This document shows positions 25,806 to 40,887 of a stretch of DNA of 64,000 bases, piece by piece. Origin of the DNA: Syntrophaceae bacterium (GTDB lineage Bacteria; Desulfobacterota; Syntrophia; Syntrophales; UBA5619); contig PLLC01000107.1 of assembly GCA_003141195.1 (NCBI GenBank), positions 16,174 through 80,173 on the forward strand, in the 5' to 3' direction. The translations under genes and the position numbers were made by a program. Under the pieces are notes generated by a model that ran no database searches, was not told the origin of the DNA, and saw only the letters and a list, made by a program, of their open reading frames with translations. Within the stretch, counting starts at the first letter, position 1; each line of letters begins with the position of its first letter.

Positions 25806-27239
25806 TTATTCAGGAGGATGTTGCGCTCCTGCGGGGGTGGGAAGAACCAGTTTCCGGTCGATATAAAGGGGATCCGGGCGCTTGAGGTGATTGAGTTCCA
25901 TGAGGACACGGATTGTCGTTCCGTGTCTTGCGGCGATCGCACCGAGCGTATCGCCCCTTTTCACCCGGTAGGTCGTTCCGGACTTCGAAGCGGGGTCGCG
26001 CTTCCCGGCGACGGTCCCCTTTACCATCCCCTTCTCTTCCCCGACGGAATGATCCCGTGACTTTGGTTCTTCATCCTTTCCGGCGGAAACGGTTACGGCT
26101 GCCGCCGAGAGGGGCGGCAGGAATTCGACGACGGAGCGGGCCACCCCCTCCGCGATCCGCGTCTGAAAGCGGTCGCTCCGCAAAAGCTTTTCCTCTTTTT
26201 CATTGGAGATATAGGCGGTTTCGACCAGAATGGACGGAACCTCCGGGAGCTTGAGCACACGGAAAGGCGCCTCCTGAACGGTCGCGAATTTAAGACGGTT
26301 CGTCGCACCCAGCTCTCTGAGGAGCACACCGCCGAAGGTTCTGGACTGGTTTATGGTATGGGTCTGGAACATGTCGAGGATGATCGGACCGGAGACATCG
26401 CTTCCCTCCCCGTTGGGGACCCCGCCGACGACGTCGGCCAGGTTTTCATTCCTGGCGAGAATCTTCGCCGCCTCGTTGCTCGCCGCCCCGGTAGAGAGAC
26501 TGTAGACCGAACTGCCGGCGGCCTCCCGGTTTCTGGCCGCATCCGCGTGGATGCTCACGAACAGATCCGCCCCGTATTCTCTCGCAATCATGAGCCTTTT
26601 CTTGAAAGATACATAATAGTCGTCATCCCGGGTCAGAAAGGCGCGGTAACCTTCCTTGCCATTCAGCATATCCCGCAGCTTTTTTGCGATCGCCAGCACG
26701 ACATTCTTTTCAAAGGTCCCCTTTTTCCCGACCGCCCCCGGGGCATCGCCCCCGTGACCGGGATCGATCACGACGACCCTGGCCTTGTGCGTAACCTTGA
26801 TCCGTTCCCGGGCCTCGCTCTCCTGTTTTGCGGCATCCGGCAGGACGAGATCCACGACGATCCGGTACGGCTTGTCCTGAAACATTTTTAACTTAAAAAC
26901 CGTAGTCTGGACCGGACCGGGGAGAGACAGTTCCACGCGGACCCCGGAACGTGGACGGGTGGAAAGGGCAACCCCCTCCAGCCCCGGCTTTTTCAGGATC
27001 GTAATGCGGGGAAGATGGGAAGGCAGCGCGGTCTCTTCCAGATCGACGGCAATCATCCTCTCCTCCTTTTCGACGGTGAACGAGACATCCTCGCTCGTGT
27101 CGATCACGACCCGGGTATGGTCCGGGGCCACCCAGTGGCGGATGTTCAGGATCTGGTTCAAGGCCAGGGCGCAGGACGGCCAGCCGGATCCAAAGATCCA
27201 GATGACCAGAATCACGAAGAGCTTTCCTGCACGGGACAT
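25806..27239 (-). CDS. N-acetylmuramoyl-L-alanine amidase (AmiC-type: AMIN domain, Amidase_3, C-terminal LysM)
   Basis: 477 aa with a signal peptide. VVVIDPGHGG...FVSIHADA, and a LysM domain YRVKRGDTLGAIAARHGTTIRVLMELN. Confidence 0.88.
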   Translation of the reverse strand: MSRAGKLFVILVIWIFGSGWPSCALALNQILNIRHWVAPDHTRVVIDTSEDVSFTVEKEERMIAVDLEETALPSHLPRITILKKPGLEGVALSTRPRSGVRVELSLPGPVQTTVFKLKMFQDKPYRIVVDLVLPDAAKQESEARERIKVTHKARVVVIDPGHGGDAPGAVGKKGTFEKNVVLAIAKKLRDMLNGKEGYRAFLTRDDDYYVSFKKRLMIAREYGADLFVSIHADAARNREAAGSSVYSLSTGAASNEAAKILARNENLADVVGGVPNGEGSDVSGPIILDMFQTHTINQSRTFGGVLLRELGATNRLKFATVQEAPFRVLKLPEVPSILVETAYISNEKEEKLLRSDRFQTRIAEGVARSVVEFLPPLSAAAVTVSAGKDEEPKSRDHSVGEEKGMVKGTVAGKRDPASKSGTTYRVKRGDTLGAIAARHGTTIRVLMELNHLKRPDPLYIDRKLVLPTPAGAQHPPE

Positions 27240-27456
27240 ATCCGCATCCTGAAATATTTTGGGAATATGTATCAGCTCCGGCGGACAAATTCAACCCCGA
27301 TTGCGAAAAGAGATTGACATGGCGCACCGTTGATGGCATGGATACCGCCGCCGCGGGATCCGGTGAGTGGCCGCGTGGAAAAAGGATTGAATATTCGCCT
27401 GGCCCGTAGTATGGTTCACCGCCGTCAAGCGTTTGCGCCGGTGAGCGTCTTTCAGG

Positions 27457-27533
27457 GGGCGATTAGCTCAGTTGGATAGAGCGCTGGTCTCCGGAACCAG
27501 AGGCCGTGGGTTCAAGTCCCACATCGCCTACCA
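27457..27533 (+). tRNA. tRNA-Arg (anticodon CCG)
   Basis: Hand-folded cloverleaf: acceptor GGGCGAT/ATCGCCT, D arm GCTC/GAGC, anticodon stem CTGGT/ACCAG with loop CTCCGGA, T arm GTGGG-TTCAAGT-CCCAC, encoded CCA. Confidence 0.93.
27485..27533 (+). repeat. attL: 49-bp direct repeat (3' part of tRNA-Arg)
   Basis: Base-for-base identical to 38759-38807. Confidence 0.9.
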
Positions 27534-27541
27534 AGTAAATC

Positions 27542-27579
27542 AGGGGCTTAACGAATTACAGTTAGCCCCTCTTTTTTTG
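27542..27579 (+). terminator. rho-independent terminator just after tRNA-Arg (supplied by island DNA)
   Basis: AGGGGCTTAAC-gaattaca-GTTAGCCCCT followed by CTTTTTTTG. Confidence 0.7.
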
Positions 27580-27581
27580 TC

Positions 27582-27601
27582 TGCTACCCTATAGCTACCC
27601 T
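27582..27601 (+). repeat. 20-nt arm repeat TGCTACCCTATAGCTACCCT (copy 1; internal tandem GCTACCCT x2)
   Basis: Identical to 38603-38622, in the same orientation. Lies 49 bp inside attL. Confidence 0.8.
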
Positions 27602-27910
27602 TTTTATTTTTTACCCTCAATCACATGCTCATTATTTAGAATGTTAGAAGATGAAATATTATGTATGGATAGGGCCAGGGGGAGGCTCCCCACTGGATTG
27701 ATGGGTTCCCTTCTCCTGTCATTGACAAGTAGCTCGGTGCACACGGCGGGTAAAAATCGGAAACACAGCTATAGTGCACCGTTGCGAAAAAGTGTCCTGA
27801 CCAATATTTGACCTTACAAACACTGTCAAATTAAGTCTCCGTCTCTTTTAACGAGTTCACCTACCAACACTCAGCCCAAGGTGGCAATGGAAGATGAACA
27901 TTACTGAAGG

Positions 27911-27950
27911 AAACAAACGAAAAGGCAGAGCCATTTGACCAGCCCTGCCT
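27911..27950 (-). terminator. rho-independent terminator of the HAF/PEP-CTERM gene
   Basis: Minus strand: AGGCAGGGC-tggtcaaatg-GCTCTGCCT (9 bp, one G-U) followed by TTTTCGTTTGTTT. Confidence 0.65.
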
Positions 27951-27976
27951 TTCGATTTAGTTCTACACCCGGTTTA

Positions 27977-28885
27977 CTAACTCAGCCTTCTCCTGACTCC
28001 TGCAAGGCCCATAAGCCCGAGGCCAAGAAGCAGCATGGTGGTTGGTTCGGCAACATCAAAATAACTGCCCACAACCGCACCGGCATCGTTGATGCCGCGA
28101 GCGGTAGTATAACGAATATTAGTGCCGGGGTAAATAATTTTGTTATACGTATCTCCGCTCATCAGGAAGCCGAAAGTATTGGCACCAGAGCCACTACCAC
28201 CCACAACCATTCCCGCATCATTGATGTCATAGGCGTAAGTATTATGTTCGCCTGGGTAATCGAATGAGGTATACGTATCTCCGGTTTTCAGGAAGCCATG
28301 CGTATAGTGGCCATCATAATAATAACCCACAACAGTACCGGTATCGTTGATGCCATAGGCGAGAGTCCAAACTGCGCCTGGGTAATCGAATGAGGTATAC
28401 GTATCTCCGTTTTTGAGGAAGCCATGCTCGAAACCAGACTTCCCATAAGAACCCACAACGGTACCGACATCGTTGATGCCAAGGGCGGAAGTATTGTGGT
28501 CGCCTGGGTAATCAAATGAGGTCAACGTATCTCCGGTTTTCAGGAAGCCATACCCTATGCCCGAATCACTATAACTGCCCACAATAGTACCGGCATCATT
28601 GATGTCATAGGCTGTGCCAAAACTGCCGGGAAGATCAAGTGATGTATACGTATCTCCGGTTTTCAGGAAGCCATTACAGTTGCTGTAACTGGATTCACAG
28701 TAATAACCCACAACGTTACCGGCATCGTTGATGCCAAAGGCGAGAGTATAAATAGCGCCGGGGTTATTAAGTGAGGTATACGTGTCTCCGCTCTTCAGGA
28801 AACCGTAAAACTCATCAGCATGTGCCGTGGAAAAAAATAGAAACAAAAATATTATGCAACAAATACTTTTTGATAGCGTTTTCAC
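27977..28885 (-). CDS. secreted HAF-family extracellular repeat protein with C-terminal PEP-CTERM sorting signal
   Basis: Start moved to GTG 28885 after GGGGGAGG (MKTLSKSICCIIFLFLFFSTAHA signal peptide). Six ~42-aa repeats (GFLK.GDTYTS.DYPG....A.GINDAG.VVG.Y). C-terminus VAEPTTMLLLGLGLMGLAGVRRRLS. Confidence 0.85.
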   Translation of the reverse strand: MKTLSKSICCIIFLFLFFSTAHADEFYGFLKSGDTYTSLNNPGAIYTLAFGINDAGNVVGYYCESSYSNCNGFLKTGDTYTSLDLPGSFGTAYDINDAGTIVGSYSDSGIGYGFLKTGDTLTSFDYPGDHNTSALGINDVGTVVGSYGKSGFEHGFLKNGDTYTSFDYPGAVWTLAYGINDTGTVVGYYYDGHYTHGFLKTGDTYTSFDYPGEHNTYAYDINDAGMVVGGSGSGANTFGFLMSGDTYNKIIYPGTNIRYTTARGINDAGAVVGSYFDVAEPTTMLLLGLGLMGLAGVRRRLS

Positions 28886-28940
28886 GGATTCCTCCCCCCA
28901 ATTAAATAACAAGATAAAGACCTAATGACTTGTAAAGCCA

Positions 28941-28985
28941 CACAAAAAAATAATAAGCCCCCTTTCATTTAACCCAACAGGGGGC
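28941..28985 (-). terminator. intrinsic-terminator-like hairpin ~55 nt upstream of the HAF gene start (transcript end or leader attenuator)
   Basis: Minus strand: GCCCCCT-gttgggttaaatgaa-AGGGGGC followed by TTATTATTTTTTTGTG. Confidence 0.55.
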
Positions 28986-29927
28986 ATATTTATGGTACTT
29001 TCCGGAAGAGACTCTTCATTGATAACTCCGTATGATGAAGGAACAAATCAACAAAGTCTTGAAAAGAAATACACTAATATCTAAGCACAAAATATGCCAA
29101 ACTATTTATAAATATTTATTATGCTTCGATGTTCCCTGATATATAACGATATAAGCATGTAAAAAATCATTTCTGCTTAATGGAATGAACCCTCTAATGC
29201 CCAAGTGCCATCATTAATCGTAAAGGTATCCGACACAAATGGTGGCCTATAATCATATAATAGCTACAAGCTGCTGTAATTATTGTATTGAACAATTATC
29301 AAAGTTGTAAGTATATCCGACACTATAGAATGTACAAGGCGAGCGTTACCAATCATAATCTTGTAAGTTCCAGCATGGCTGGCATGTGTGGATTTCAGGA
29401 AGTACGCATCAACCGGGTGAACCATAATATGTATGGACAGGGCCGGGGGGAGAAGCCCATTGTATGGATACCTTATTTGGGCATTCATCAGTCCTGCGGT
29501 ACGCACGAAGGCTAAAAAAGGTAACCATGAACTGTACCGTTTACGCTAAAGTAATCGAGACACCACGGAAATGCCTTTGATACGGCGGTAAGGAATCCAT
29601 TACCGCGTAACCCGCAAGGGGGGGGGAATTTTCACCTGAAGTTGATCTCAAATAGGGAGCACTGTAAAGGCAGTTAGGATTCCTCGCCCAAAGATGATGA
29701 ATAATTTAGATTCATCCGGGTCTTGCGTACTTCTCTCTCGTTCACCTGCTAACAAATGATTTTTAGAAGTCTGGATGTTAATGATTATGGAAAGAAAGGG
29801 GGAATATGAATAGTTTCAAAATTCACCCTTTCCCCGTAAATGATCACACACTGCATCCTTCAGAAACACCCGTCCCAGAAATACTGCCATCTGATTTCTA
29901 ATTACCATAAAAGTGCATTTAGGCGGA

Positions 29928-32522
29928 TCAATTAGTTCCGCCAAGCCCAGGCAGCCCATCGAGCATCATGCCGTCTGAGCTACCATTGAGCTGAAAACCG
30001 ACAACATTCCTGTCCGATGAATAGGCAATGTAGGTGGCGCCGCTGATATCCTGCTGCGGGAAGATCGCCTCCGCGAGATTGACCACTTTGGCATGGCCAC
30101 CGACAGGGAGCACCTGGGTGGCCACCGCAGTTCCATTATCATTATAGGCGGTCAGGGTAACGGACGCCGCGCTGTCTTCCGTGTTGACAAAAGCAATACC
30201 GGTCCAGCCGTTCTTCTCGATCTTGGCAAAGACGCCCGTCTTCGCGCCGGTCCCGCCGCTTCCTGCATAGGCCGCAAGCTGGTTGCCGTCGGTAGTGCCG
30301 AAAAGCTCAAAACCGCTGAGGGGCGTCGTGGAGTCTATCTTGAACCACGCCGTTTGAGCGGGGAGGCCGAGTTGCGAAACCGCGCCAATATATTTTCCCT
30401 TCCCCGCTATGGGAAGGGTTGAGGGGGAGAGGGGGGTTCCTGTGGCACTATAGGGCGTGATGGTTATCGTGCACGCCAACTCCGATGGGTTATAAGCCAC
30501 AATACCGGTCCACCAGATATCATCACTGGCCACGTGGGGGTAGTATATGGTCGAGGCGGTGTTGTCTGTAAGGAGGATTCCGTCCAGGTGGTTGTTGCCT
30601 CCGTTATTGCCAAACAGCTCCAGTCCAATGATGCCGCTTGCATTGGTGATCACCGCGGATTGAATGCCCGGCTGAGGTTGGTTATTGAAGAACTCCTGTG
30701 CGATGTCGAAAGCTCTGTGTTGATTCGCATTGAGTGTATAGGGCACGCTGTGGCCATTATTAAAGGTAATGGTCAGTACTTTTGTTGCCGAGGTTGTGTT
30801 CACCAGGCTTACCCCGGTCCACCAGTCAGTGCTTGAGGCTATGTGTGAGATATATATATCCGAGGTGTTCACCTCTTTGACCGCGGGGATTGCCGCCCTA
30901 TAGTACCCTTCTCTGTAAAACTTCGTGTAGCCCTGGACCGTAGCAGAGTCTGTGTCAAACGTTATGTAGCCTATGTTTGTGTGGTTGGAAAACTCATCTG
31001 CAACAGTGATCTGTCTGCGGCCGTGGGCAGAGAGTGTAACAGTCTTGGTCTCTACTAGCTGACCTTCATCACTAAAACTCCTCAGGGCGCCGTTAATTGT
31101 TTGATCGGGGCTGGTATTTATGATGGCTATCTCCGTTTGCCAAGGTAAGCTCGTGGCAATGTGGGGGAAGTAGAGAGCCGTTCCCGCTGTAGCAAAGGTC
31201 GCCGTGACGGTCTTGTCGCCTTCCATTGTTACCTGGCAGGTTGTCGATGTTCCCGAGCAGACTCCGCCAGACCAGATGGCGAAGATGGAGCCAGGGTCCG
31301 GGGTGGCGGTGAGGTTGATGGAAGCACCTTTGATGAAATAATTTGAACAGGTCGCGCCACAGGCAATCCCGGCGGGAGAACTGGATACTGTCCCGGAGCC
31401 GCCGCCGGATTTCAAAATGACCAAATTACCGAATAACCCAGACTGTCCCGACCGCACACAGCGCATTTCGTAGCTACCCGTCCTGGGCTCATATCCGACG
31501 TTGCCGGAGCCGAAGTACACGAGCCACACGAAGTCCATACTGCCAGTGTATGTAGTAGACGACCAATAATTGTATGGCACGGTGTTTGAGGCCAGGAGCG
31601 GATCGATAGCTGGGTTGTAGCGGGAATAATCCACCAGCGATTGCAATTCGTTGCGGTTGGGCAGCCGCCAGTCTGAATATCCGGCAAAAGAAAGATTCTC
31701 ACAGTAAGAAAGCGCGTTTTGCCATTTGTATGTTCCCGGGGGCGTAGCCTTCTGCCACATCAAACCCGACCCGGTGTCTGTTACCGTACCGTCCCCATTG
31801 TCCACCAGGGCGGCAGAGGCAACATTGTCGGCACGAACGGCGCGTGCGCAATAGCCACTCGCCATATAGTAGATGCCGACGTAGCCGCGCCCGAAGTCGA
31901 CGGGCCACGCGCGGCCCAAAAGGCCGGCGTAGGCAGTAGACGACCAACAGGACCACGTGGCATTCGGAAACCAGGCGGTATCGCTGGCCGGATTGTTGAT
32001 ACCGCTGTTGACCAGGGAGGAGAGTTCCTTGATCGTCGGCATCCGCCAGTCGCTGAAGCCGCCGAACTGGGCGTCGTTGATGGCCTTAATGAAGGCTTCC
32101 GTGTCCGTGGCGGCATTACCCGTTCCCGTTCCGCAGGTCCCCTGGTAGCCGCCTTGCGCCGTGGAATTCTTGTCACACCAGGTATATGTGTTGCCCTTAT
32201 CATGTATCCCGCCGTCATCGGTCTTCATCTCCCAGATGAGCCCCGTCACGTTGTCTCGGGTCATGAGCCAGCCGCTTTCCTGCGTGGCGGAATCGGATAG
32301 GGCAACGGCGTTTTGCCCTAACTTGGTGTAAGAACGGTTCGGGCCCTGATACTGAGCGTCCTGACCGTAAAAGGGCTGCCCAGGCGCTGGGCATGAAATC
32401 TCAACGAAGTCGTTATAGCACTTTGTCTGTCCTGTATCGGGAAACGGCCAGGCAAAGACCTCAGGCACGCACAACAGGACCAAAACCGAAATCCATGCCC
32501 ACATCTTCCAGCGAATCTTCAT
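29928..32522 (-). CDS. large secreted multidomain protein (2x DUF1566/Lcl-C-terminal-like, InlB-B-repeat-like module, four ~100-aa unnamed repeats)
   Basis: Start moved to MKIRWKMWAWISVLVLLCVPEVFA (ATG 32522).
- DUF1566-like blocks: GLIWEMK...FSDWRMPTIKELSSLV and GLMWQKA...YSDWRLPNRNELQSLV.
- B-repeat-like module: GGGSGTVSSSPAGIACGATC...VTATFA.
- Repeated Y.PH(I/V)A(S/T)..(D)WWTG motifs. Confidence 0.8.
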   Translation of the reverse strand: MKIRWKMWAWISVLVLLCVPEVFAWPFPDTGQTKCYNDFVEISCPAPGQPFYGQDAQYQGPNRSYTKLGQNAVALSDSATQESGWLMTRDNVTGLIWEMKTDDGGIHDKGNTYTWCDKNSTAQGGYQGTCGTGTGNAATDTEAFIKAINDAQFGGFSDWRMPTIKELSSLVNSGINNPASDTAWFPNATWSCWSSTAYAGLLGRAWPVDFGRGYVGIYYMASGYCARAVRADNVASAALVDNGDGTVTDTGSGLMWQKATPPGTYKWQNALSYCENLSFAGYSDWRLPNRNELQSLVDYSRYNPAIDPLLASNTVPYNYWSSTTYTGSMDFVWLVYFGSGNVGYEPRTGSYEMRCVRSGQSGLFGNLVILKSGGGSGTVSSSPAGIACGATCSNYFIKGASINLTATPDPGSIFAIWSGGVCSGTSTTCQVTMEGDKTVTATFATAGTALYFPHIATSLPWQTEIAIINTSPDQTINGALRSFSDEGQLVETKTVTLSAHGRRQITVADEFSNHTNIGYITFDTDSATVQGYTKFYREGYYRAAIPAVKEVNTSDIYISHIASSTDWWTGVSLVNTTSATKVLTITFNNGHSVPYTLNANQHRAFDIAQEFFNNQPQPGIQSAVITNASGIIGLELFGNNGGNNHLDGILLTDNTASTIYYPHVASDDIWWTGIVAYNPSELACTITITPYSATGTPLSPSTLPIAGKGKYIGAVSQLGLPAQTAWFKIDSTTPLSGFELFGTTDGNQLAAYAGSGGTGAKTGVFAKIEKNGWTGIAFVNTEDSAASVTLTAYNDNGTAVATQVLPVGGHAKVVNLAEAIFPQQDISGATYIAYSSDRNVVGFQLNGSSDGMMLDGLPGLGGTN

Positions 32523-32730
32523 TTCCCCCCTCCCAGCTATTTCAGAATCCAATCCCCATGATGTTGCTATCACCGGTCATGCCTTATTGATTGAATAATG
32601 GGATTTTATCTGGACCCGTCTAAAATTCTATCCAGTCTCCTCCTTCTCAACACACAAAACCCCACACTTTTTAAGAAACGGGGTCTTTATATTCGTTACC
32701 ATCTTTTCACTTCATTTTTAGAGAAATAAA

Positions 32731-33057
32731 TTACTTCCAGTTTCCAGACAATTGCCACCACGTAAGCACATCATTTGTAAAAGTGAGCCGGGCAGAAGGT
32801 CTTTGTACAGGAAGCGTCATGGCCACATTACCAACCGGCATAATTACCGTACCTCCTTCTCCATAAATCCATGTGCATACTCGTGTCTTTCCTGCTTCTG
32901 CGCATTGAGAAGGGGGGCCAAATCTTTGAAGTGCCTCCTCGTAAGACATTTCATTCATACGTGAATTTAACATATCTTGTGTCTCATGCGTTGTTGCACA
33001 TCCATTGAGGCATAAAAAAATTGCAACAAAAAGATAAAATATTGACTTTTTCATCAT
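32731..33057 (-). CDS. small lipoprotein (BamE/SmpA-like size class), function unknown
   Basis: Start moved to MMKKSIFYLFVAIFLCLNGC (lipobox LNGC). 108 aa. Confidence 0.6.
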   Translation of the reverse strand: MMKKSIFYLFVAIFLCLNGCATTHETQDMLNSRMNEMSYEEALQRFGPPSQCAEAGKTRVCTWIYGEGGTVIMPVGNVAMTLPVQRPSARLTFTNDVLTWWQLSGNWK

Positions 33058-33091
33058 CCACTCCTTCAAAACGCAAAACCCCGCACGGAAT

Positions 33092-33367
33092 TCACCGGCA
33101 AACATTTTGCCATCGTCCATTGACCTGCATATACTGGCACCGTGAAGTACCAATTGGCGGAACATTTATTGACGGCAGTGGCTTCAATTCCACTGACGGC
33201 AATGCCGGTATAGGCGGAACATTTATTGACGGCAGGTCATAGGTATTGTCGCAAATGTCTACGTACCGGCAATTGTATCCACCGTCGTCGCATACGTAAG
33301 AACTCCGGCAAACTCCAAAAGCATTTGTAGCAAACAACACAATAACCAAAATAATTAAACTTTTCAT
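33092..33367 (-). CDS. small secreted cysteine-rich protein with internal LPSINVPPI repeat
   Basis: Start moved to MKSLIILVIVLFATNAFG. The mature part has 8 Cys. A 23-nt DNA repeat at 33156-33178 and 33213-33235 encodes the duplicated LPSINVPPI. Confidence 0.55.
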   Translation of the reverse strand: MKSLIILVIVLFATNAFGVCRSSYVCDDGGYNCRYVDICDNTYDLPSINVPPIPALPSVELKPLPSINVPPIGTSRCQYMQVNGRWQNVCR

Positions 33368-33399
33368 CTCTCTATCTCCTTTTCTATTGCTGTTTTTAA

Positions 33400-33687
33400 T
33401 TACCGGCTCTTTAGACATTTAAACAATTGCCGTTCGATTTCCTTCTGAAATTCGTTTAAAAATACAGGGTCTGTCCGTATCTTTGCCAGGGCGCTTTCTG
33501 TAGCCTGCATAAGCCGATCTTCTTCCCTCTGGATCTTTTCAAGCATATCAGCCCGTCTTGCGATCCTGGATATAGTAGGCTGAGAGGTATGAAGTAATTC
33601 GGCAATCTTTCTTTGCGACGTGCCCACAGCCAGCGCATGGGCAAGTATCATTTTTATATGCGGTAAGTTGATTTTGGACTTATTCAT
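33400..33687 (-). CDS. small helix-turn-helix DNA-binding protein
   Basis: 95 aa. GTSQRKIAELLHTSQPTISRIARR is a classic HTH. Confidence 0.65.
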   Translation of the reverse strand: MNKSKINLPHIKMILAHALAVGTSQRKIAELLHTSQPTISRIARRADMLEKIQREEDRLMQATESALAKIRTDPVFLNEFQKEIERQLFKCLKSR

Positions 33688-33794
33688 CGTTTAATTTCCT
33701 CTTTTTGAATCAAAAGTCAATCGAAATGAATAGGAAATTATAATAATTGACTGTTCAGGCGTCACGCACACAGAGACTTTTATCCGGTACGGCA

Positions 33795-34193
33795 TCAATT
33801 CAAGCACGCCTTCAGCATCCGAAGATCGCTTTGAAGGGTTCCCATCCTCGCCCGTGGTCCTTTGGGGCCGGTCTGAATCTCCCGCCGAAAGGATGAAAAG
33901 AATTTCACCGGATCAATGATATGCAGGTGCGGTTCCAGATAGAACGGTGTTTCCGGTGGCTCTAATTTCATGAACCAGTCCATAAGGACTTGAACCTCCG
34001 GGGGCCATACGGCCTTCACATTTGCCCCAGGTTCAACGATCGCCCGGTGGGTGGGTGCTGCTAACCCATTGCTAACCTCAGCCACAGGGGGGGATTGTGC
34101 GGATATTGCTGGTAATTCCCCTATAAAGCCTTTTTTGACTTTTTCTCTCTCTCCTGTGGTAGCCATCGCCTTATATTTTTCAAGTAAATTCAT
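33795..34193 (-). CDS. hypothetical protein (island-encoded)
   Basis: Track ORF 33795-34244, with the start moved to MNLLEKYKAMA (34193) after GGAGAA. I recognise no motif. Confidence 0.45.
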   Translation of the reverse strand: MNLLEKYKAMATTGEREKVKKGFIGELPAISAQSPPVAEVSNGLAAPTHRAIVEPGANVKAVWPPEVQVLMDWFMKLEPPETPFYLEPHLHIIDPVKFFSSFRREIQTGPKGPRARMGTLQSDLRMLKACLN

Positions 34194-34213
34194 TTTCAAT
34201 TCTCCTGAAAAGT

Positions 34214-34229
34214 GTCCGCATAATCCGCA
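34214..34229. promoter_or_regulatory. operator-like motif, inverted copy (GTCCGCATAATCCGCA)
   Basis: Near reverse complement of TGCGGATATTGCGGAC at 34264-34279, 34 bp away. Lies upstream of ORF 33795-34193. Confidence 0.5.
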
Positions 34230-34263
34230 AAACCCCTTTGGCAATCTTCCTGCCGGGGGATTC

Positions 34264-34284
34264 TGCGGATATTGCGGACGGTTT
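34264..34284. promoter_or_regulatory. operator-like 21-mer TGCGGATATTGCGGACGGTTT (copy 1)
   Basis: Identical to 38509-38529, which lies upstream of the integrase start. A partial third copy TGCGGATATTGC is at 34098-34109. Confidence 0.55.
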
Positions 34285-34285
34285 C

Positions 34286-36700
34286 TTATACATTTGAGAG
34301 AACTTTCGGGTTCACTTCATACCCCTGTGACTCGGGCCGCCCCGTTCTTCTCCCATAATCAACCTTGCCCACTTCCCGGATATATCCTCGCTCGATCAAG
34401 ATCATTATGCCGGGCTGAATTTTATCCATAGACGCGCAGCTTGTGTGAGAGAACAAATCGCGCCCCTTGAAGCTCTCCGGCCTGTGTCGCTTGACGTAGG
34501 AGAGAATTTTCCGGGCCACGGCGAGATGAGCATCCTCTTTCATAATCCCGAAAGCTGCTTTGGCGTGTTCGGTAAAGTACCCGCCCAGATAGCAGGCTTT
34601 TGATAGCGATTCGCCGGAGATAGGCTTTCCGATCCCTTCGGGGCCATGCTCCGCGAAATGCAGGAGTCCAGAGATACGGGCCACGGCTCCGGGTAACTTG
34701 CTACCCCAATCAACAAGGTGCTCAAGCTCACCTCCAGGACGCAGGAGGGATTCAACATCGGCATAAAAGCCGTTCCAGATCGTTTGAGCATCGAGGGCCA
34801 GCCTCAATTCGTGCCGCCCGGCGACTTCCATTAGGGCCACAATCAATCTGTGGTAGGCATCCTTGACGTTCACAGGAACAGGGGAAGTTTGTAAGATGCG
34901 GTATCCTGCCTTTGACTGACACCAAGCATATAAGAACCGGGCCGACAGTCCCCGCCCCCGAAATTCTGAATTGCGTCCGATTTCTTCAAGCACATCGGGT
35001 TGAACCGCCAACCCCAGGGTGAGGGCCGGGTGGAGCATGGACTGTGATCCCCGCCCTATCCTGCCACTGCTCCATGCGTCGCCGGTGTGAGCTTTCAGAA
35101 TTAGGTCAATGTTCGTGTTGCCCTTACTGTTATAAAGCCCCCCAATGATCTTGAAAAACCCGCCTTCCGCCGAAAGTATCGCCGCCCGTTCGTCATTGTC
35201 GGCCATTGTCTCCCCGAGCTTTTCCAGTGTGATATTGTCCACAAGATATTCCGGGACCGGGGGGACTGGATTCTCCTCAATCGTTTTCAGGAGGTCGGAG
35301 CAGTTCCGGAGAAGCGTATCGCGTTCCACTGGATCATCCGTATCCGCTGCCTTTTTTTCCAGTCTATCACGACGCTTTTCCAATACCCGCTTGCGGTTTT
35401 CCGCCTCACGGATAATGGGGATCATGGCATTCTGACGGGCTTTCTGGTGAGCATAGAGGGGGGCCGCAATCTGGCCTACAGTTTCGGATTTTCGATTCCC
35501 AGAACCCAGTACGGAGAGGAAATAGTGGTTCCCCTGCTCTGTGTGGGAATCAAGAACAATTCTCAACCGTGCGCCGATTGCCGTCGATAAAGCCGCTAAC
35601 ATCATACAGCCGGGGAGTCCCGGATCGACCTGACAGCTTACCGCAACTGCCGCAACCATTTGACCACAGGGGCCGGGGATCGCCTCGACCGGGAAGAAGG
35701 GGAGGAGGCTGTAGTCATTGAACGGAACAGGCTCCGGCCAATCATCGGGGGAAGGCTTCTCTTTCGTCTCTGCCCCCTCCTGTGACTGACGCTCCTCCCC
35801 GAAGTGCGCCTTGCATCCCTCGACAGCCTTCTGGATTGTCGCCTCGCCATAGGTGCATGGCCCATGTCGGACATCCCATTTTTTGCGGTATAAACCGGAC
35901 TCCCGGAAAGCTGCATCTATTGCCGCAGGATCGCCGTCCAGCCAGAAGGCAAGGTGCGAACACAGGCTGAGGTCCCCCTCACTCTGTGAAGGATAGGCCG
36001 AGTAATCGCCTTTCCACAAACGCTCGATCTCTGCACCATTAACGCTTTGGAAGGCTTTTTCCAGCAGCGGGTTCCGCCGGCCACCCGTAGATGTATTCGT
36101 CCGGACCGTCCTCTCCTGCTCGGAGGGCTTCTCCGTGGCTCCGAATACCGCCTTGTAAAAAGCATCAACCTCCATCTGCCGGGGTTCGATTGTTCGGGGG
36201 AATCCGTCCAGAACGTGGCCTGTCACGGTCACATATCGGCCAGACTGATAAACCTCAATCGGCCCTTTCCGCTTACCGTCCACGGGCAACTTGCTTTTGA
36301 GAAATACCCTGATCCCCTTACCTGAGGGGCTCACTTCCGTGTAAGAATTCAAGCTCCTGATATGGTCGGCAACAACCGGCAAAACCATGTTCAAGCCAGC
36401 GGATATTTCTGGATCAATCTCATCAAAGGCTGGGCATCTGCAATTATCAACATCCAAACCGACAATCCCTCCCTCCTGTGTTAAAACAAAACCGATTCCG
36501 TCATAACGTGGCGCCGCCTCTGCCACCGTAGAGAAGGGGCTCCATGTTAAAGGATTATTCGACTCTGCCAGCTTCCCGTTAGGCTGATAGGGGGGCTTTG
36601 TCGGCTTGCCCCCTTCCTTCCGGGGAACGGATTTCCAATTAACCCACTGACGGTATTGCTTAAGTTCATCCGGGATATTCTCGAAGATAGGGCTTAGCAT
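34286..36700 (-). CDS. replication protein: bifunctional primase-polymerase (PrimPol) N-domain + PriCT-2-like + DUF3987 (helicase-like)
   Basis: Start moved to MLSPIFENIPDELKQYRQWVNW (ATG 36700, 4 nt after the xis stop). GIGFVL...GLDVDNC...SPSGKGIRVF, then LCSHLAFWLDGDPAAIDAAFRESGLYRKKWD, and a long DUF3987-like C-terminal half. Confidence 0.8.
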   Translation of the reverse strand: MLSPIFENIPDELKQYRQWVNWKSVPRKEGGKPTKPPYQPNGKLAESNNPLTWSPFSTVAEAAPRYDGIGFVLTQEGGIVGLDVDNCRCPAFDEIDPEISAGLNMVLPVVADHIRSLNSYTEVSPSGKGIRVFLKSKLPVDGKRKGPIEVYQSGRYVTVTGHVLDGFPRTIEPRQMEVDAFYKAVFGATEKPSEQERTVRTNTSTGGRRNPLLEKAFQSVNGAEIERLWKGDYSAYPSQSEGDLSLCSHLAFWLDGDPAAIDAAFRESGLYRKKWDVRHGPCTYGEATIQKAVEGCKAHFGEERQSQEGAETKEKPSPDDWPEPVPFNDYSLLPFFPVEAIPGPCGQMVAAVAVSCQVDPGLPGCMMLAALSTAIGARLRIVLDSHTEQGNHYFLSVLGSGNRKSETVGQIAAPLYAHQKARQNAMIPIIREAENRKRVLEKRRDRLEKKAADTDDPVERDTLLRNCSDLLKTIEENPVPPVPEYLVDNITLEKLGETMADNDERAAILSAEGGFFKIIGGLYNSKGNTNIDLILKAHTGDAWSSGRIGRGSQSMLHPALTLGLAVQPDVLEEIGRNSEFRGRGLSARFLYAWCQSKAGYRILQTSPVPVNVKDAYHRLIVALMEVAGRHELRLALDAQTIWNGFYADVESLLRPGGELEHLVDWGSKLPGAVARISGLLHFAEHGPEGIGKPISGESLSKACYLGGYFTEHAKAAFGIMKEDAHLAVARKILSYVKRHRPESFKGRDLFSHTSCASMDKIQPGIMILIERGYIREVGKVDYGRRTGRPESQGYEVNPKVLSNV

Positions 36701-36704
36701 CGGC

Positions 36705-36923
36705 TCACCCCCTCTCCGGCAGGGAATCACGGGTGAGGACAGGGTGGGACCCCAACCAAGCTTCCAAATCTTCTTGCCGGTAGAGAACCTTCCCTCCAAC
36801 CTTGAAGTAGCGGCAGCCTTCCTTCCTGCACCTTTGATTTGCAAGATTTCCGATCGATAGGCAGGGGTAAAATTCTTTTATTTGTCTAATTGATAAATAA
36901 GTGGTGAAATTTTGATTGTTCAT
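36705..36923 (-). CDS. excisionase/AlpA-family HTH DNA-binding protein
   Basis: 72 aa. YLSIRQIKEFYP.LSIGNLANQRCRKEGCRYFKVGGKVLYRQEDLEAWL fits the excisionase-type HTH. Confidence 0.75.
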   Translation of the reverse strand: MNNQNFTTYLSIRQIKEFYPCLSIGNLANQRCRKEGCRYFKVGGKVLYRQEDLEAWLGSHPVLTRDSLPERG

Positions 36924-37325
36924 CGTAAACCTCCTAAATATTTTAGTTATTTAGGCTGTTCACGACCGTGGTGGGCTCGGGACAAGCAAAAGCACACATG
37001 AGTGTGTGCATTTTCCTCGCCTCAAGTTATCGGCTCTACTGTGATGAGTGGGTGGGGTTTTTAGATCGCTACGGCGGGTCACTATGGTGACTTTACGGCC
37101 GAGCGCATAAAAAAACAACAACTCGCTCTTTCCGAGCGCCCCGAGGGATCGGGATAGCTGCCCCGCGGCTCACTTAGGCCGCGAGAAGCCTCACGGGGAA
37201 TCCCCCCATGATAGTCTTAATATAGTAATTTTCTTTCAGTTTGTCAAGAAAAGAATCACAAACTTTCTTCTATATTAATAGTAACAAGAAATTCTTGTTT
37301 TTGTTAAGAAAACCGTCATCAACAA

Positions 37326-38483
37326 TCACACTTGATAGTCGGCAATCATGCTGACCACGTTCCTCTCCTGTGATTGATTAAAGCCGGTTTCCATCAGCTT
37401 GACGGCCTTCCGCTTCACGTCAGGGCTCAGGTGCGAATATCTCTGAACCATCGCCATTTGCCTATGGCCTGACAGTTCTGCAATCACATGGAGGGGAGTC
37501 CCCTGCATCGCCAGCCAGGAGCAGAATGTGTGTCTCGTGGTATGAAAAACAACCTTTTGCCGGTTGTCGCTGATCCCCTTATTGAATTCCAGAGCGTCAA
37601 CCGTCCGGTCGAAACTGTGGCTTACCTCTCGGATAGGCTCCCCCTTGCTATTCGTGAATACCAGATCGCCGGGGGTTTCTGGTTTCCTCTGCATAAGGAT
37701 TTCTTTCACAGGGGTGGTCATAAAGGCTTTCCGTGGGTACTTGTTTTTTGTGTCATCGACGTTGATAAGCTCTTGGTCGAAGTCCAGGTCATGGCCTCTC
37801 AGAGAGAATATCTCGGACGCCCTCATGCCTGTATGGAGGCCGATCATAGTTATGTCATGCCACAGAGGGGACCTATCCTTTAGACGTTCAAGCAATAGCC
37901 CCGCTTCCTCTGTGGTCAACCATCGTTCACGCTGGTTCTGTGGGACTGGCAATTTAACAAATTTGATAGGATTCGGGCCACTGTATAAATCCCAAGCGAC
38001 AGCCTTGTTAAAAATGGAACGGAACAGCACCAGGATGTGTTTTACACTTTGAGGTGAAAGTTCCTTGCTGGAGATGGCTGCTTTTAATCGCTCCAAGTCA
38101 AATGCGCTAATTTCATTCATTCGTTTCCCGGAAAAAAATTCTTTCATATGCTTATCATAGCGGAAGCGTTCCAAACTCCCGCCTCTTGTAAGGTTCGTCT
38201 CAGCCCACAAGAAATACTTATCCGCCACATCTGTGAAGAGAGGGGCCTTGACTTTATCTTTCGGTAGTTCCTCGCCGAACCGTATCTGCTTCATTCTCTG
38301 GGCGCGAATATCGGCAGCCAGCTTTGCACTATATCCTTCAGACAGCCAGCCTATCTTTTCCCATATCTTCCGCCCATCCTTCTTGTATGCAATGTCATAA
38401 CACAGGTTGGGCTTCCCCTTGAATATCTCCTCTGTGGACTCCCGCTGATAGACTCCCTTATGGATTCGGCTTCGTTTGCTCAT
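37326..38483 (-). CDS. tyrosine-type phage integrase
   Basis: 385 aa. HTGMRASE (Arg), HTTRHTFCSWLAMQG (H-x-x-R), LGHRQMAMVQRYSHL (Tyr). Confidence 0.92.
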   Translation of the reverse strand: MSKRSRIHKGVYQRESTEEIFKGKPNLCYDIAYKKDGRKIWEKIGWLSEGYSAKLAADIRAQRMKQIRFGEELPKDKVKAPLFTDVADKYFLWAETNLTRGGSLERFRYDKHMKEFFSGKRMNEISAFDLERLKAAISSKELSPQSVKHILVLFRSIFNKAVAWDLYSGPNPIKFVKLPVPQNQRERWLTTEEAGLLLERLKDRSPLWHDITMIGLHTGMRASEIFSLRGHDLDFDQELINVDDTKNKYPRKAFMTTPVKEILMQRKPETPGDLVFTNSKGEPIREVSHSFDRTVDALEFNKGISDNRQKVVFHTTRHTFCSWLAMQGTPLHVIAELSGHRQMAMVQRYSHLSPDVKRKAVKLMETGFNQSQERNVVSMIADYQV

Positions 38484-38508
38484 GGTCTCCCCCTTCCTGA
38501 AATAGTTT

Positions 38509-38529
38509 TGCGGATATTGCGGACGGTTT
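38509..38529. promoter_or_regulatory. operator-like 21-mer TGCGGATATTGCGGACGGTTT (copy 2), 26-46 nt upstream of the integrase ATG
   Basis: Identical to 34264-34284. Confidence 0.55.
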
Positions 38530-38602
38530 TCCGGTATATTGGAAAATTATTTATGGCCTTTCCCTGACCTCTGTGATAATAAAAATATTCAATAGACTCC
38601 CG

Positions 38603-38622
38603 TGCTACCCTATAGCTACCCT
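38603..38622 (+). repeat. 20-nt arm repeat TGCTACCCTATAGCTACCCT (copy 2)
   Basis: Identical to 27582-27601. Lies 137 bp inside attR. Confidence 0.8.
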
Positions 38623-38637
38623 CTTGGGTTAAAACGG

Positions 38638-38743
38638 GTGATTTTCAGTGAAAAGAACCAAAAAGGATTGCTACCAAAAACAGGCACAAACACCATATAT
38701 TATATGATTAGTTATGTCAAGTGATTTTTAGTGAAAAAGGCCA
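38638..38743 (+). repeat. pair of 23-nt direct repeats in the integrase-proximal arm
   Basis: GTGATTTTCAGTGAAAAGAACCA (38638-38660) and GTGATTTTTAGTGAAAAAGGCCA (38721-38743). Confidence 0.65.
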
Positions 38744-38758
38744 GAAGATGATATTCAA

Positions 38759-38807
38759 TGGTCTCCGGAACCAGAGGCCGTGGGTTCAAGTCCCACATCG
38801 CCTACCA
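38759..38807 (+). repeat. attR: 49-bp direct repeat (displaced 3' fragment of tRNA-Arg)
   Basis: Identical to 27485-27533. No 5' half of a tRNA precedes it. Confidence 0.9.
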
Positions 38808-38927
38808 TGCGGACAAAAGTCTTGATTTTCATGGAGACTTGTTATAAAAATCAAACTCATTTCAAAGAGGGACTCTCCTTGCCCGGACCTGGAGTCCGGG
38901 CTATAGAGCCGAAAGGAGGAAACAGCA

Positions 38928-39407
38928 TTGAGGAGATACGAAACCATACTGATCGCGCATGTCGATCTTTCCGAGGATGAACAGAGCAGCCTCATCGCCC
39001 GCTACGGCGCGATCGTAACGGGCCAGAAGGGCATCCTGGTCAAGGTCGAACGGTGGGGAAAGCGGAGGCTGGCCTACATGATCAAGAAGCAGGCCAGGGG
39101 ATTCTATATCCTGATCGACTATGCAGGCGAAAGTGCAGCAGTCAATGAACTGGAAAGAAATCTCAAGATCAATGACAAGATTCTGAAGTTCATGACCGTT
39201 CTCAAGGATGACGCGGTCGACCCCGCCGCCCTGGAGAAGGAGATCGCGGAAGCTGCGCAGAAGACGGAAAAGAAGGAGGAGGTCAAGGTGACTGCCCCTG
39301 AAACTCCTCCGGCTGCCGCTCCGGTTGAAAGTCCCGAACCGGAGGCAGCGGAGATTCAACAGCCGGCGCCGGAAGAAACGACGACAGATGTGAAGGGGGA
39401 TCATTGA
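38928..39407 (+). CDS. rpsF: 30S ribosomal protein S6 (with acidic/Pro-rich C-terminal extension)
   Basis: TTG start after [27 protein letters not shown]...[11 protein letters not shown]. Confidence 0.92.
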
Positions 39408-39409
39408 TC

Positions 39410-39685
39410 ATGGCGACGACACCTGCACCCAGGGGCCCCAGCAAGGGGGCCAGACCACAGAAAAAGTTCTTTCACCGGAGGAAATTCTGCCGTTTCTGTA
39501 CGGACTCGAACCTGAGGATTGAATACAAGGAAACGCAGACGCTCCGGGATTTCACAACGGAGAGAGGCAAAATCATGCCTCGCCGGATCACGGGAAACTG
39601 TGCAAAACATCAGCGGGAATTGACCGTGGCCATCAAGAGGGCGCGGACAATCGCCCTGCTGCCCTTTGTCGTGTCTGAAGGATAA
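39410..39685 (+). CDS. rpsR: 30S ribosomal protein S18
   Basis: ATG 39410. [13 protein letters not shown]...[21 protein letters not shown]. Confidence 0.93.
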
Positions 39686-39954
39686 GCAAAGGTGAGGCAG
39701 CCGTGGCGATGAGTTTTTGAACCGCGGCTGCCCCGTCTTCACCGGAAGGGAAACCGGTTGTACTGTTTTCTCTTCCGAATCATCACTCCAGGATCCATAT
39801 ACTCCCCGCTCCGCAAGGATATTCTCTGAATGGTTCGGCGGTTACACTGAGCGGAGGACTGGAAAATATCGGCGGTGCGTCCCCTTTCAGATGGCATTTC
39901 ACATGTCGGGTTTGGAACTTGGAAAGAGAAAAGGGTCCTTTATTTCATAACGGC

Positions 39955-40887
39955 ATGGTTTGGGCCGGCGCGATCCTTACGCTCACCTTTCTCTTCGTGG
40001 CCCTGATTCCTTTTGTCGGTCCGGTCGTCGTCATCCTCACGCCGTTGCCGGTACTCTACTACTGCACCCGTCTGGGCAGGTTGCGGGGACTGATGGTCCT
40101 GGCCGTTTCGTACCTGGCGGCATTCGGGATCCTCAGTCTTTCAGGGCAACGCGCGAACCTGCCCGTTCTGTTCATGATCGGTTTTGCCGGCGTGCTGCTC
40201 TTCGAGGTCCTGAAACGACATCGTTCCGTAGAAAAGACGTTTCTGCTGGCCTCGGCGGCGTTGTTCTGCTGCGGCGCAGGCTTTGTTCTTTATCATTCCT
40301 TCCTGGCCGGCATCGCGCCATGGCAGACGGTGGAATTCTATGTGGCGGGGATCGTCCGGGAAAATATCAAATTATATGCCCAGTTGAATATCTCGGAGGA
40401 GCAGGTCCGGCTGATCCGGGAGAGCGCCCCGCAGATCACCCATCTTTTCACAGCGATCTTTCCCGCCCTGGCCCTGTCGGGCGCCGTTTTCACGGTCTGG
40501 GTAAATCTGCTTGCCGGACGCCTGCTCTTTCGGATCCATGGCGTCGCCTTTCCCGATTTCGGCGATCTGGCCGCCTGGAAGGCCCCGGAAAGGCTCGTCT
40601 GGATCCTGATCGCCGCCGGGGGGATGGTGTTTGTCCCCATGGAAGGGGTCACCATCGTCGGGATGAACCTCCTGATTATCTGCGGTCTGATCTACCTGTT
40701 CCAGGGCCTGGCCATCGCCGCCTTCTTCTTCCGGCAGAAGCGGGTCCCCATGATTTTCCGATGGCTGTTTTATGGCCTGCTCCTGATCCAGCAGTATATG
40801 CTCATTATTGTGATCGCCTTCGGTCTTTTCGACATGTGGGTCGATTTCCGGAAACGGATCGGGGGAATTGGGAATGTCCCCGCATAA
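39955..40887 (+). CDS. DUF2232 (YybS-like) polytopic membrane protein
   Basis: Multi-TM ORF in the conserved slot between rpsR and rplI. The start is uncertain (TTG 39919 or ATG 39955). Confidence 0.7.
   Translation: MVWAGAILTLTFLFVALIPFVGPVVVILTPLPVLYYCTRLGRLRGLMVLAVSYLAAFGILSLSGQRANLPVLFMIGFAGVLLFEVLKRHRSVEKTFLLASAALFCCGAGFVLYHSFLAGIAPWQTVEFYVAGIVRENIKLYAQLNISEEQVRLIRESAPQITHLFTAIFPALALSGAVFTVWVNLLAGRLLFRIHGVAFPDFGDLAAWKAPERLVWILIAAGGMVFVPMEGVTIVGMNLLIICGLIYLFQGLAIAAFFFRQKRVPMIFRWLFYGLLLIQQYMLIIVIAFGLFDMWVDFRKRIGGIGNVPA

Follow-up and report, generated by a model that had tools for sequence, protein, structure and literature searches.

The stretch of DNA considered in this report (64,000 nucleotides of contig PLLC01000107.1 in assembly GCA_003141195.1 of a Syntrophaceae bacterium, hereafter the window) harbors an island of 11,225 bp, accompanied by a 49-bp duplicated core, in the 3' half of the gene for tRNA-Arg(CCG). 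The 11.2 kb between the two copies of the core are a genuine insertion, and the inserted DNA is very probably a site-specific integrative element that is competent for its own replication, unable to transfer itself and dependent on a helper for its movement between cells. It was probably acquired recently. An integrative island at this place had been proposed earlier from the letters of the sequence (the original prediction), and the observations described below bear on most of what was proposed.

Evidence for the insertion comes from natural sites that have the island and natural sites that lack it. When public assemblies were searched for an identical RpsF protein, a single contig was retrieved, PMZF01000062.1 of NCBI assembly GCA_003170455.1 (L004), in which the amidase gene, the tRNA gene and rpsF are adjacent and the bacterial attachment site (attB) is precisely empty. 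This contig is 100% identical to positions 19850-27533 and 38759-44396 of the window (7,684 and 5,638 nt of flank) and amounts to the window minus the island and minus one copy of the repeat. Its empty junction, which reads GGATAGAGCGC followed by the core and TGCGGACAAAAG, was also sought as an exact match in metagenome contigs of the Joint Genome Institute (JGI), where four further contigs (L028-L031) were found that have flanks 87-95% identical to the window and a tRNA gene that directly adjoins rpsF. Occupied sites are represented by ~25 contigs, which come from at least 15 samples and from several assemblers, and in which the island resides at the same site with 99.2-100% identity; most of the divergence among these carriers falls within the repeat region of a gene for a PEP-CTERM protein. 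SRR11568929 is among the carrier samples, as are Stordalen-type runs that underlie ERZ1998xxxx, ERZ2725425x and JGI 3300037086/7. The empty-site and carrier contigs together indicate that the adjacency of tRNA and rpsF is ancestral and that one lineage gained the island. Names given to members of the DnaB cluster point to a Syntrophaceae/Syntrophales-like host. Chance repetition and conserved core sequence, which were considered as explanations for the repeats, are ruled out by the empty sites, and an assembly chimera is ruled out by the ~25 independent contigs that carry the island. A comparison with related genomes had been suggested in the original prediction, as had the idea that the island parts the tRNA from the rpsF operon; both are borne out by L004 and L028-L031, which lack the insert and keep the two genes together. 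Among the species-representative genomes of the collection that was searched, none holds the island, and the best match to its replicase there is 51% identical.

The limits of the insertion are set by the core, TGGTCTCCGGAACCAGAGGCCGTGGGTTCAAGTCCCACATCGCCTACCA, which is common to all four attachment (att) junctions. Its copies at the left and right ends of the island (attL and attR) form a direct repeat that was found to be 100% identical in a repeat search of the 64-kb window, and since the bases that border the two copies differ on the left (C versus A) as well as on the right (A versus T), the repeat is exactly 49 nt long. For an exact 49-mer to recur by chance within 64 kb is effectively impossible. 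ARAGORN and the repeat search agree with the claim made at the outset that the 3' 49 nt of the tRNA recur exactly at 38759-38807. Within the tRNA, the repeat starts at position 29, which is base two of the anticodon stem, and takes in everything up to and including the CCA that the gene encodes; these 49 nt are now provided by the island side of attL, and the attR junction is identical in the empty-site contigs. The partial tRNA copy at attR, taken together with 21 bases of the island (38738-38804), scores 29.8 bits against the Rfam tRNA model, for which the gathering threshold is 29. ARAGORN makes no tRNA call there, and we read the segment as a pseudo-tRNA left by integration. The Rfam scan matched no non-coding RNA other than the tRNA and this partial copy.

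Between its ends the island differs in composition from its surroundings, with a GC content of 0.38-0.58 as compared with ~0.6 in the flanks, and every one of its genes lies on the minus strand. Its neighbors are the amidase gene on the tRNA side and rpsF on the other. The original prediction held that the island also supplies the terminator after the tRNA, which agrees with what RNA folding predicts: the hairpin that follows the tRNA has a folding energy of -15 kcal/mol (z -2.7) and is succeeded by a U7 tract, and the native sequence downstream of the tRNA contains neither a U tract nor a terminator-like hairpin. The features of the island are listed in Table 1.

Table 1. Features of the island and its insertion site, with positions numbered from the first nucleotide of the window
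Feature	Positions	Strand	Remarks
tRNA-Arg(CCG)	27457-27533	+	Intact; ARAGORN, Rfam tRNA 70.3 bits
attL core	27485-27533	+	49-nt identity block, anticodon stem to CCA
Island-borne terminator-like hairpin	27542-27579	+	Hairpin 27542-27570, then CUUUUUUUG; directly 3' of tRNA
P' arm, tandem 8-mer GCTACCCT-ATA-GCTACCCT	27583-27601	+	Candidate integrase arm-type site
HAF-repeat secreted protein, 302 aa	27977-28885	-	Cargo; PEP-CTERM sorting signal
AT-rich spacer, ~1 kb	28913-29927	.	GC ~0.38-0.44; no convincing gene
Secreted adhesin-like protein, 864 aa	29928-32522	-	Two Lcl_C (DUF1566) domains, InlB B-repeat-like domain, long C-terminal region
107-aa protein	32731-33054	-	Cargo, from ORF translation; lipoprotein-like signal (…FLCLNGC…)
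91-aa Cys-rich protein	33092-33367	-	Cargo, from ORF translation; signal peptide
HTH protein, 95 aa	33400-33687	-	Putative regulator; sub-threshold HTH_23/HTH_3
132-aa protein	33795-34193	-	Replication-module accessory; disordered N-terminus, DUF6965-like C-terminal domain
TGCGGA-N3-TGCGGA cluster, three repeats	34098-34278	.	Just 3' of replicase stop
Replicase, 804 aa	34286-36700	-	NrS-1-type primase-polymerase, helix-bundle and DUF3987 helicase
Excisionase-fold winged-helix protein, 72 aa	36705-36923	-	Putative recombination directionality factor
Promoter-like site and structured leader	36924-37247	-	TTGACA-17-TATATT at 37247-37219; ahead of xis-rep operon
Tyrosine integrase, 385 aa	37326-38483	-	PF00589 E 4e-26; phrog_1 E 2e-63
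attP P arm	38509-38738	-	Elements, in order from int to core, in the next four rows
P-arm TGCGGA repeat	38509-38523		
P-arm tandem 8-mer GCTACCCT, two copies	38604-38622		
P-arm TTTTCACTNAAAATCAC boxes	38638-38654 and 38721-38738		
int promoter-like site	38720-38692		
attR core	38759-38807	+	Displaced original 3' part of tRNA, then native tRNA-rpsF spacer

The genes named in the original prediction, for an integrase, a small helix-turn-helix (HTH) protein, a replication protein, an HTH regulator and secreted cargo, are all present, and the identities of the first three are upheld by the catalytic residues of the integrase, the excisionase fold of the small protein and the match of the replicase to the NrS-1 primase-polymerase. 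The integrase gene (int) lies at the far end of the island from the tRNA, with its start codon 275 nt from the core, and an alignment of its product to XerA (5hxy) shows that the catalytic Arg, the HxxR motif, the His and the Tyr are all conserved. The gene for the 72-aa protein ends 4 nt before the replicase gene begins. A model of this protein made with AlphaFold2 (AF2) has a beta-alpha-alpha-beta-beta-alpha fold, and its best matches in the PDB are the RdfS excisionase 8dgl (probability 1.0, 31% identity) and the GIsul2 excisionase 8c3t, so that we regard it as a putative excisionase (Xis), on the strength of a modeled structure. It had been described as an AlpA/excisionase-type HTH protein; the excisionase part of that description is sustained by the structural match, whereas the AlpA label depends on an HTH_17 match (E 1e-3) that lies below the Pfam cut-off.

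All of the components expected of an NrS-1-type PrimPol-helicase (an archaeo-eukaryotic type primase-polymerase, a helix-bundle and a C-terminal helicase) are found in the replicase. Residues 12-295 match the primase of phage NrS-1 (PDB 7rr3, 6k9a and 6a9w; E 5e-28), Pfam identifies the helix-bundle (PF22763, E 8e-24) and DUF3987 (PF13148, E 4e-88), and the best-fitting PHROGs family is a DNA primase (phrog_1829, E 4e-82). The DxD motif and the Walker-type Lys are invariant across the alignment of the family. Biochemically, DUF3987 has been identified as a 5'-3' helicase that partners with PrimPol on islands bounded by an integrase gene and a tRNA gene (PMC11724360). With regard to the domain order PrimPol-PriCT2-DUF3987 given in the original prediction, the first and last domains stand and the middle one does not, because Pfam assigns it to NrS1-1_pol-like_HBD and not to PriCT-2.

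Two small genes lie next to the replication module. The 132-aa protein resembles PF22292 (E 7e-4) and has 37 homologues; in the AF2 model its residues 60-132 have pLDDT values >87, and the only match to their fold is a DUF6965 phage protein (probability 0.95). The protein is also encoded 3' of PrimPol in L032, L034, L036, L198, L199 and L200. The 95-aa HTH protein matches a family of transcriptional regulators in PHROGs (phrog_6831, E 1e-4). It was also considered as a possible small terminase (TerS), and this assignment was rejected after neither PHROGs nor a dedicated check produced a TerS match.

The remaining genes are cargo. The 302-aa protein matches the PEP-CTERM signal (PF07589, E 2e-6), DUF3466 (E 1e-8) and the HAF repeat (TIGR02913 HAF_rpt, E 1.5e-15), and its gene holds six repeats of 126 nt (42 aa). 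Across the window and the metagenome contigs L012, L015 and L017, variants of this gene are found that encode 302, 218 or 201 aa; the difference between 302 and 218 aa corresponds to two repeat units, which implies copy-number polymorphism of a surface protein. The 864-aa protein matches PF07603 (E 2e-62) and PF18998 (E 1e-10) and is weakly similar to the adhesins Lsa25 and FimD. Neither Pfam nor NCBIfam has a family that matches the 107-aa protein, and the gene for the 91-aa protein is also called in public contigs. The spacer between the two largest cargo genes gave no match in Rfam and none to phage DNA. Judged by the sequences of these products (the HAF-repeat PEP-CTERM protein, the Lcl_C adhesin-like protein and the small secreted proteins), the cargo may alter the surface of the host cell. 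The cargo had been called both secreted and AT-rich, of which the former holds and the latter does not apply to the Lcl_C gene, with its GC content of 0.50-0.59. Outside of the island, positions 43556-46543 of the window contain a gene for a truncated tyrosine recombinase (238 aa, with a catalytic domain that is incomplete at the N-terminal side) beside one for a 519-aa N6-methylase-like protein, and the match of the contig L003/L021 (one sample) to the window ends at 46540.

The sequences at the two ends of the island allow a map of its own attachment site (attP) to be drawn, for which the attP of phage lambda is the model when it comes to reading arm-type sites and partner boxes. The predicted attP junction is GATGATATTCAA followed by the core and AGTAAATCAGGGG. 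The 64 kb contain exactly two copies of the 19-mer GCTACCCT-ATA-GCTACCCT, one 49 nt inside attL and one 136 nt inside attR, and the 8-mer itself occurs in the window at these four places only. In the relative L036 the corresponding two positions are occupied by tandem copies of another 8-mer, GTGGGGAC. In five relatives, which have partial copies of tRNA-Arg(CCT), tRNA-Met/Ile(CAT) or tRNA-Leu(TAA) beside int, the int-side arm has a common order of core, TTTCAC boxes, TTGACA-type promoter, tandem repeat and int, and the tandem repeats are specific for each element and have a period of 11 nt. By analogy we infer that the tandem 8-mers are arm-type sites for the integrase (Int) and that the TTTCAC boxes are sites for Xis or for a host factor. 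An anticodon-loop crossover class of tRNA-targeting integrases was reportedly defined by Williams in 2002. The extent of the identity block, beginning as it does in the anticodon stem, fits that class and would by comparison place the island's integrase in it.

Other cis-acting features lie nearer the replicase gene. TGCGGA-N3-TGCGGA has four matches in the window, as compared with 0.2 expected, of which three fall within 180 nt and one is at 38509; from its sequence, the cluster is a candidate for a replication origin or an operator, and these repeats are not conserved in the relatives. The 292-nt leader ahead of the xis-rep operon, which lies 3' of a strong promoter-like site of the sigma70 type, is predicted to fold with a minimum free energy of -117.9 kcal/mol (z -5.3 against shuffled sequences) and includes two terminator-like hairpins. 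The leader may serve as an attenuator or give rise to a small RNA, and it is not conserved in the relatives L193 or L198.

How the island might move between cells has to be judged largely from the functions that it lacks. Among the island's proteins, searches of Pfam, PHROGs and NCBIfam revealed no capsid, terminase, lysis, relaxase or secretion family, and PADLOC found no defence match. These scans concur with the earlier statement that capsid, conjugation and relaxase genes are not visible, and since no gene for packaging, relaxase or secretion was found, the dependence on a helper that had been deduced from this is a fair inference. The mechanism that we propose starts with recombination by Int between the tRNA gene and an attP in whose 49-bp core the tRNA sequence between the anticodon stem and the CCA, both included, is reproduced, the crossover probably taking place in the anticodon loop. 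Integration would regenerate the tRNA and leave its old 3' end behind as attR, and the tandem 8-mers at both ends would be the arm-type sites at which Int is bound. The 72-aa protein would steer excision, and the PrimPol-helicase would replicate the excised circle, possibly from the TGCGGA cluster 3' of its gene. Transfer from cell to cell would then take place through a helper, most plausibly a phage, by analogy with the satellites known as phage-inducible chromosomal islands (PICI) and phage-inducible chromosomal minimalist islands (PICMI).

The helper could also be a conjugative element. The island would then be an integrative mobilizable element (IME) that has nothing but a site resembling an origin of transfer (oriT) and borrows the relaxase and the type IV secretion system (T4SS) of a co-resident conjugative element. 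Such an origin could be hidden in the large non-coding and structured regions at 28913-29927 and 36924-37325, genes for self-transfer are indeed absent, and many genomic islands are 'hitchers' of this sort (PMC11389934). We nevertheless consider this quite unlikely, on the grounds that no relaxase, coupling protein or recognizable oriT is present, that no plasmid was found with a full-length relative, and that the replicase is of a type associated with phages and satellites (NrS-1-like, with PHROGs primase families as its best matches).

Several observations weigh against the view of the island as a helper-dependent element that remains mobile. An exact search for the 74-nt attP junction in the JGI metagenome contigs gave 0 matches, and the contigs that contain int or the PEP-CTERM gene show these genes in attR or attL contexts only and never in attP; both results refer to assembled contigs. 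The island is absent from IMG/VR, where the best viral match to its replicase is 32% identical, and the DNA at its ends has no similarity to any of 50,697 phage records. Among the carriers, divergence is equally low in the island and in its flanks, which fits vertical inheritance in one near-clonal lineage and not ongoing spread. The PrimPol gene is split in L012 and L020 (into 274 and 379 aa, and 471 and 347 aa), and the gene for the 95-aa HTH protein is cut to 30 aa in L002/L022, disruptions that may represent decay in sub-lineages or errors of assembly. The functions proposed above for the arm sites, for the origin and for the excisionase are putative. Finally, the empty site in an identical background is known from one 13-kb contig of a metagenome-assembled genome, and an assembler that uses short k-mers could in principle have skipped from one copy of the 49-bp repeat to the other; L028-L031, with their diverged empty sites, are independent of that contig.

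Some of these observations would be accommodated if the island were a formerly mobile one that has become immobile and is now inherited vertically, domesticated or decaying, and retained for its surface-protein cargo. All of the carriers belong to one lineage with a divergence of <=0.3%, the island diverges no less than its flanks, attP has not been encountered in the assembled contigs, and some of these show disruptions of the PrimPol or HTH gene. We find this reading rather doubtful in view of the perfect 49-bp repeats, the arm sites that are intact at both ends, the integrity of int, xis and rep in the window as well as in most contigs, and an empty site whose 100%-identical background suggests a recent gain or loss. 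The same perfect repeats, intact genes, intact arm sites and identical-background empty site are the signs of recent activity on which the reading of the island as a mobile, helper-dependent element draws. As for the original prediction of a recent and possibly still excisable element, the perfect repeats and intact genes are in its favor, whereas the attP circle that would accompany excision is missing from the assembled contigs.

The relatives of the island show how its architecture is distributed and what can be exchanged within it. There are hundreds of metagenomic homologues of the replicase, and their domains have been shuffled: the PrimPol and helix-bundle domains are also joined to D5, AAA_25 or DUF3631 helicases, and DUF3987 is also joined to Toprim or Prim-Pol N-termini. 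In the close relatives the gene order is int, 0-3 small genes, an xis-like gene, PrimPol-DUF3987 and a small protein, followed by cargo that varies. The closest fully sampled relative is L036, a Syntrophales contig with an island in tRNA-Arg(CCT) that is bounded by a 49-nt repeat; its integrase and PrimPol are 34% and 49% identical, respectively, to those of the window. Its cargo (14899-17943) consists of four tandem PEP-CTERM paralogues of ~740 bp each, two of which match PEP-CTERM with an E value of 8e-4, just under the Pfam cut-off, so that surface-protein cargo appears to recur in the island family. The cargo of L193, whose replicase is 63% identical, is of the defence type (15973-22403; AAA_13, GmrSD_N and a Type ISP restriction-modification protein), and the cargoes of L196, L198 and L201 include a caspase-like peptidase, a ResIII helicase with ParB_N, and Dam, respectively. 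Seven tRNA-bounded islands of 7-14.6 kb, all with int and this PrimPol, represent seven lineages (Syntrophales, Acidobacteriota, Synergistales, Bacillota, Thermoanaerobaculia, Thermoleophilia and Meiothermus). Among the distant islands, L076 (11.4 kb) has a lone TerL-like gene at 6199-7626 and L089 (14.6 kb) has a lone gene for a major head protein at 14158-15396. Such single packaging or head genes are reminiscent of satellites that form capsids.

The N-terminal domain of PrimPol is common in temperate phages such as phi105 and relatives at 35-40% identity, and on this basis the island might be viewed as the remnant of a full prophage that was stripped of its structural and lysis genes. This origin seems highly improbable for an element in which both att ends are intact and no fragments of structural genes are found. 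Structural genes are likewise missing from the close relatives that share the island's backbone (with the full extent seen for L036 only), and the seven tRNA-bounded PrimPol islands are all small; small relatives without structural genes argue for a dedicated small-element architecture rather than for independent decay. The best protein match from a phage record, and the only phage-database record with a full-length relative of the replicase, is L112 (MT836114.1), a 12.9-kb 'Bacteriophage sp.' from human faeces that is unverified and whose replicase is 33% identical. Its genes encode an integrase, a CI-like repressor, PrimPol-DUF3987 and methylase-like or unassigned proteins, capsid genes being absent, and the record probably represents such an island deposited under the name of a phage.

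A more specific form of helper dependence is that of a minimalist, PICMI-like phage satellite, in which a helper phage would induce xis-rep and the island would be excised, replicated and packaged without capsid-remodeling genes of its own. Its 11 kb are within the size range of satellites, its integrase, excisionase-like HTH protein and DUF3987 primase are the mandatory PICMI core (PMC10803314), and three of the five core components of a PICI are present if the putative regulator is counted (PMC10085698), although the authors of SatelliteFinder deem three-component elements too unspecific (PMC10085698). The lone TerL and major head protein genes in L076 and L089 point in the same direction, as does the defence cargo of the relative with the same backbone, such cargo being frequent in satellites; the cargo of the island itself, however, consists of surface proteins. 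A terminator-rich leader before xis-rep would suit induction by antitermination. On the other hand, searches of the island turned up no gene for TerS, capsid morphogenesis, Sid/Psu/Delta or any other hijacking function, no cos/pac-like similarity to any phage and no attP or concatemer contigs were detected, IMG/VR does not contain it, and a helper phage is not known. We entertain the satellite as a tentative possibility and retain the broader description of a helper-dependent integrative element.

It is conceivable, if unlikely, that the island and its relatives make up an undescribed family of minimalist phage satellites of anaerobic Syntrophales/Thermodesulfobacteriota that swap exosortase-dependent surface-protein cargo and defence cargo, with induction in the present case by antitermination in the leader. 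The defining set of such a family would be a tRNA-distal int, the excisionase-fold protein, a fused NrS-1-type PrimPol-DUF3987, often the DUF6965 protein, and a common attP layout.

Whatever its means of transfer, the island represents a cleanly bounded mobile element of an uncultured peat syntroph for which occupied and empty sites have both been seen in natural populations, and little is known about mobile elements in organisms of this sort. It indicates that small integrase/PrimPol islands act as vehicles for exosortase-sorted PEP-CTERM proteins and adhesin-like proteins, with defence genes on the same backbone in a relative, and the comparison with other islands provides a testable map of attP that comprises the core, conserved TTTCAC boxes, the int promoter and element-specific tandem arm sites. 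Islands with int, xis and primase genes that are integrated in tRNA genes are common, and as an ordinary example of these the island leaves the current understanding of them unchanged.

In general terms the island is a tRNA-targeting tyrosine-integrase island, with a tRNA gene and its repeat, a catalytic recombinase beside attP, and empty sites. Its relationship to more narrowly defined groups is one of partial likeness. P4-like satellites and the cryptic prophage CP4-57 of E. coli combine an integrase for tRNA or tmRNA genes, an AlpA-type regulator and YfjI, a member of the DUF3987 family, in ~10 kb. The island resembles them in its tRNA-targeting integrase, its small putative regulator of the AlpA type, its DUF3987-type protein and its size. 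It differs in that its integrase gene is distal to the tRNA and transcribed divergently from the core, and in the domains of its replicase; no match to Psu-Delta-Sid, epsilon or the alpha primase was obtained with PHROGs and Pfam, which places it outside the P4-like group. Similarly, searches of Pfam, PHROGs and NCBIfam, which a bare oriT could escape, yielded none of the relaxase, coupling protein or T4SS families that would identify an integrative and conjugative element or an IME. The likeness of the replicase to the primase-polymerase of phage NrS-1 (PDB 6a9w, 6k9a and 7rr3) covers the N-terminal 295 residues, the DxD motif and the helix-bundle, whereas the His of motif II is replaced by Arg ('SGKGIR'), as it is across its subfamily, the helicase part is DUF3987, and the protein is encoded by an island and not by a lytic phage. 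The integrase-AgaPP-AgaPH islands of Bacteroidota (PMC11724360) likewise have int at one end, a tRNA at the other, PrimPol together with DUF3987, and variable cargo, but their PrimPol and helicase are separate proteins of a BT4734-like family and their conserved cargo is a long-B Argonaute, in contrast to the fused, NrS-1-like PrimPol-helicase and the secreted-protein cargo of the present island.

The island also has parallels with satellites that are induced by phages. For the PICI, five core components have been distinguished (integrase, regulator, primase-replicase, capsid morphogenesis and small terminase), and elements are called PICI only when they have four or five of these, those with three being treated as uncertain (PMC10085698). 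The integrase and the primase-replicase are present in the island and small terminase and capsid-morphogenesis genes were not found; the place of the regulator (AlpA/MerR/Stl) would be taken by the small protein with the sub-threshold HTH_17 match (E 1e-3), which has an excisionase/MerR-type fold (RdfS, probability 1.0). With at most three of five components the island is not a PICI by the SatelliteFinder definition, and its host phylum lies outside of the known PICI range, even though it has in common with PICI and with the staphylococcal pathogenicity islands (SaPI) a module of int, a regulator (here putative) and a primase at one end, with accessory genes opposite, a size of ~10 kb and site-specific integration with direct repeats. 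For the PICMI, int, alpA and a DUF3987/DUF5906 primase make up a sufficient core, and capsid genes are absent (PMC10803314). This core is present in the island, in the same order and in the form of a tyrosine integrase, a small winged-helix protein of the excisionase/AlpA type and a DUF3987 primase; also shared are the small size, the lack of genes for capsid remodeling or packaging, and a small uncharacterized gene after the primase. The PICMI are distinguished from it by a site next to fis, ~six genes, hosts among the Vibrionaceae and helper phages that were shown experimentally, and the island is distinguished from them by its NrS-1-type PrimPol N-terminus, its 11 kb, its ~5 kb of surface-protein cargo and its site in tRNA-Arg(CCG), so that neither the integration site nor the host range is that of a PICMI. 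The island would function like the helper-dependent islands of the PICI and PICMI kind, yet it stands outside every named family.

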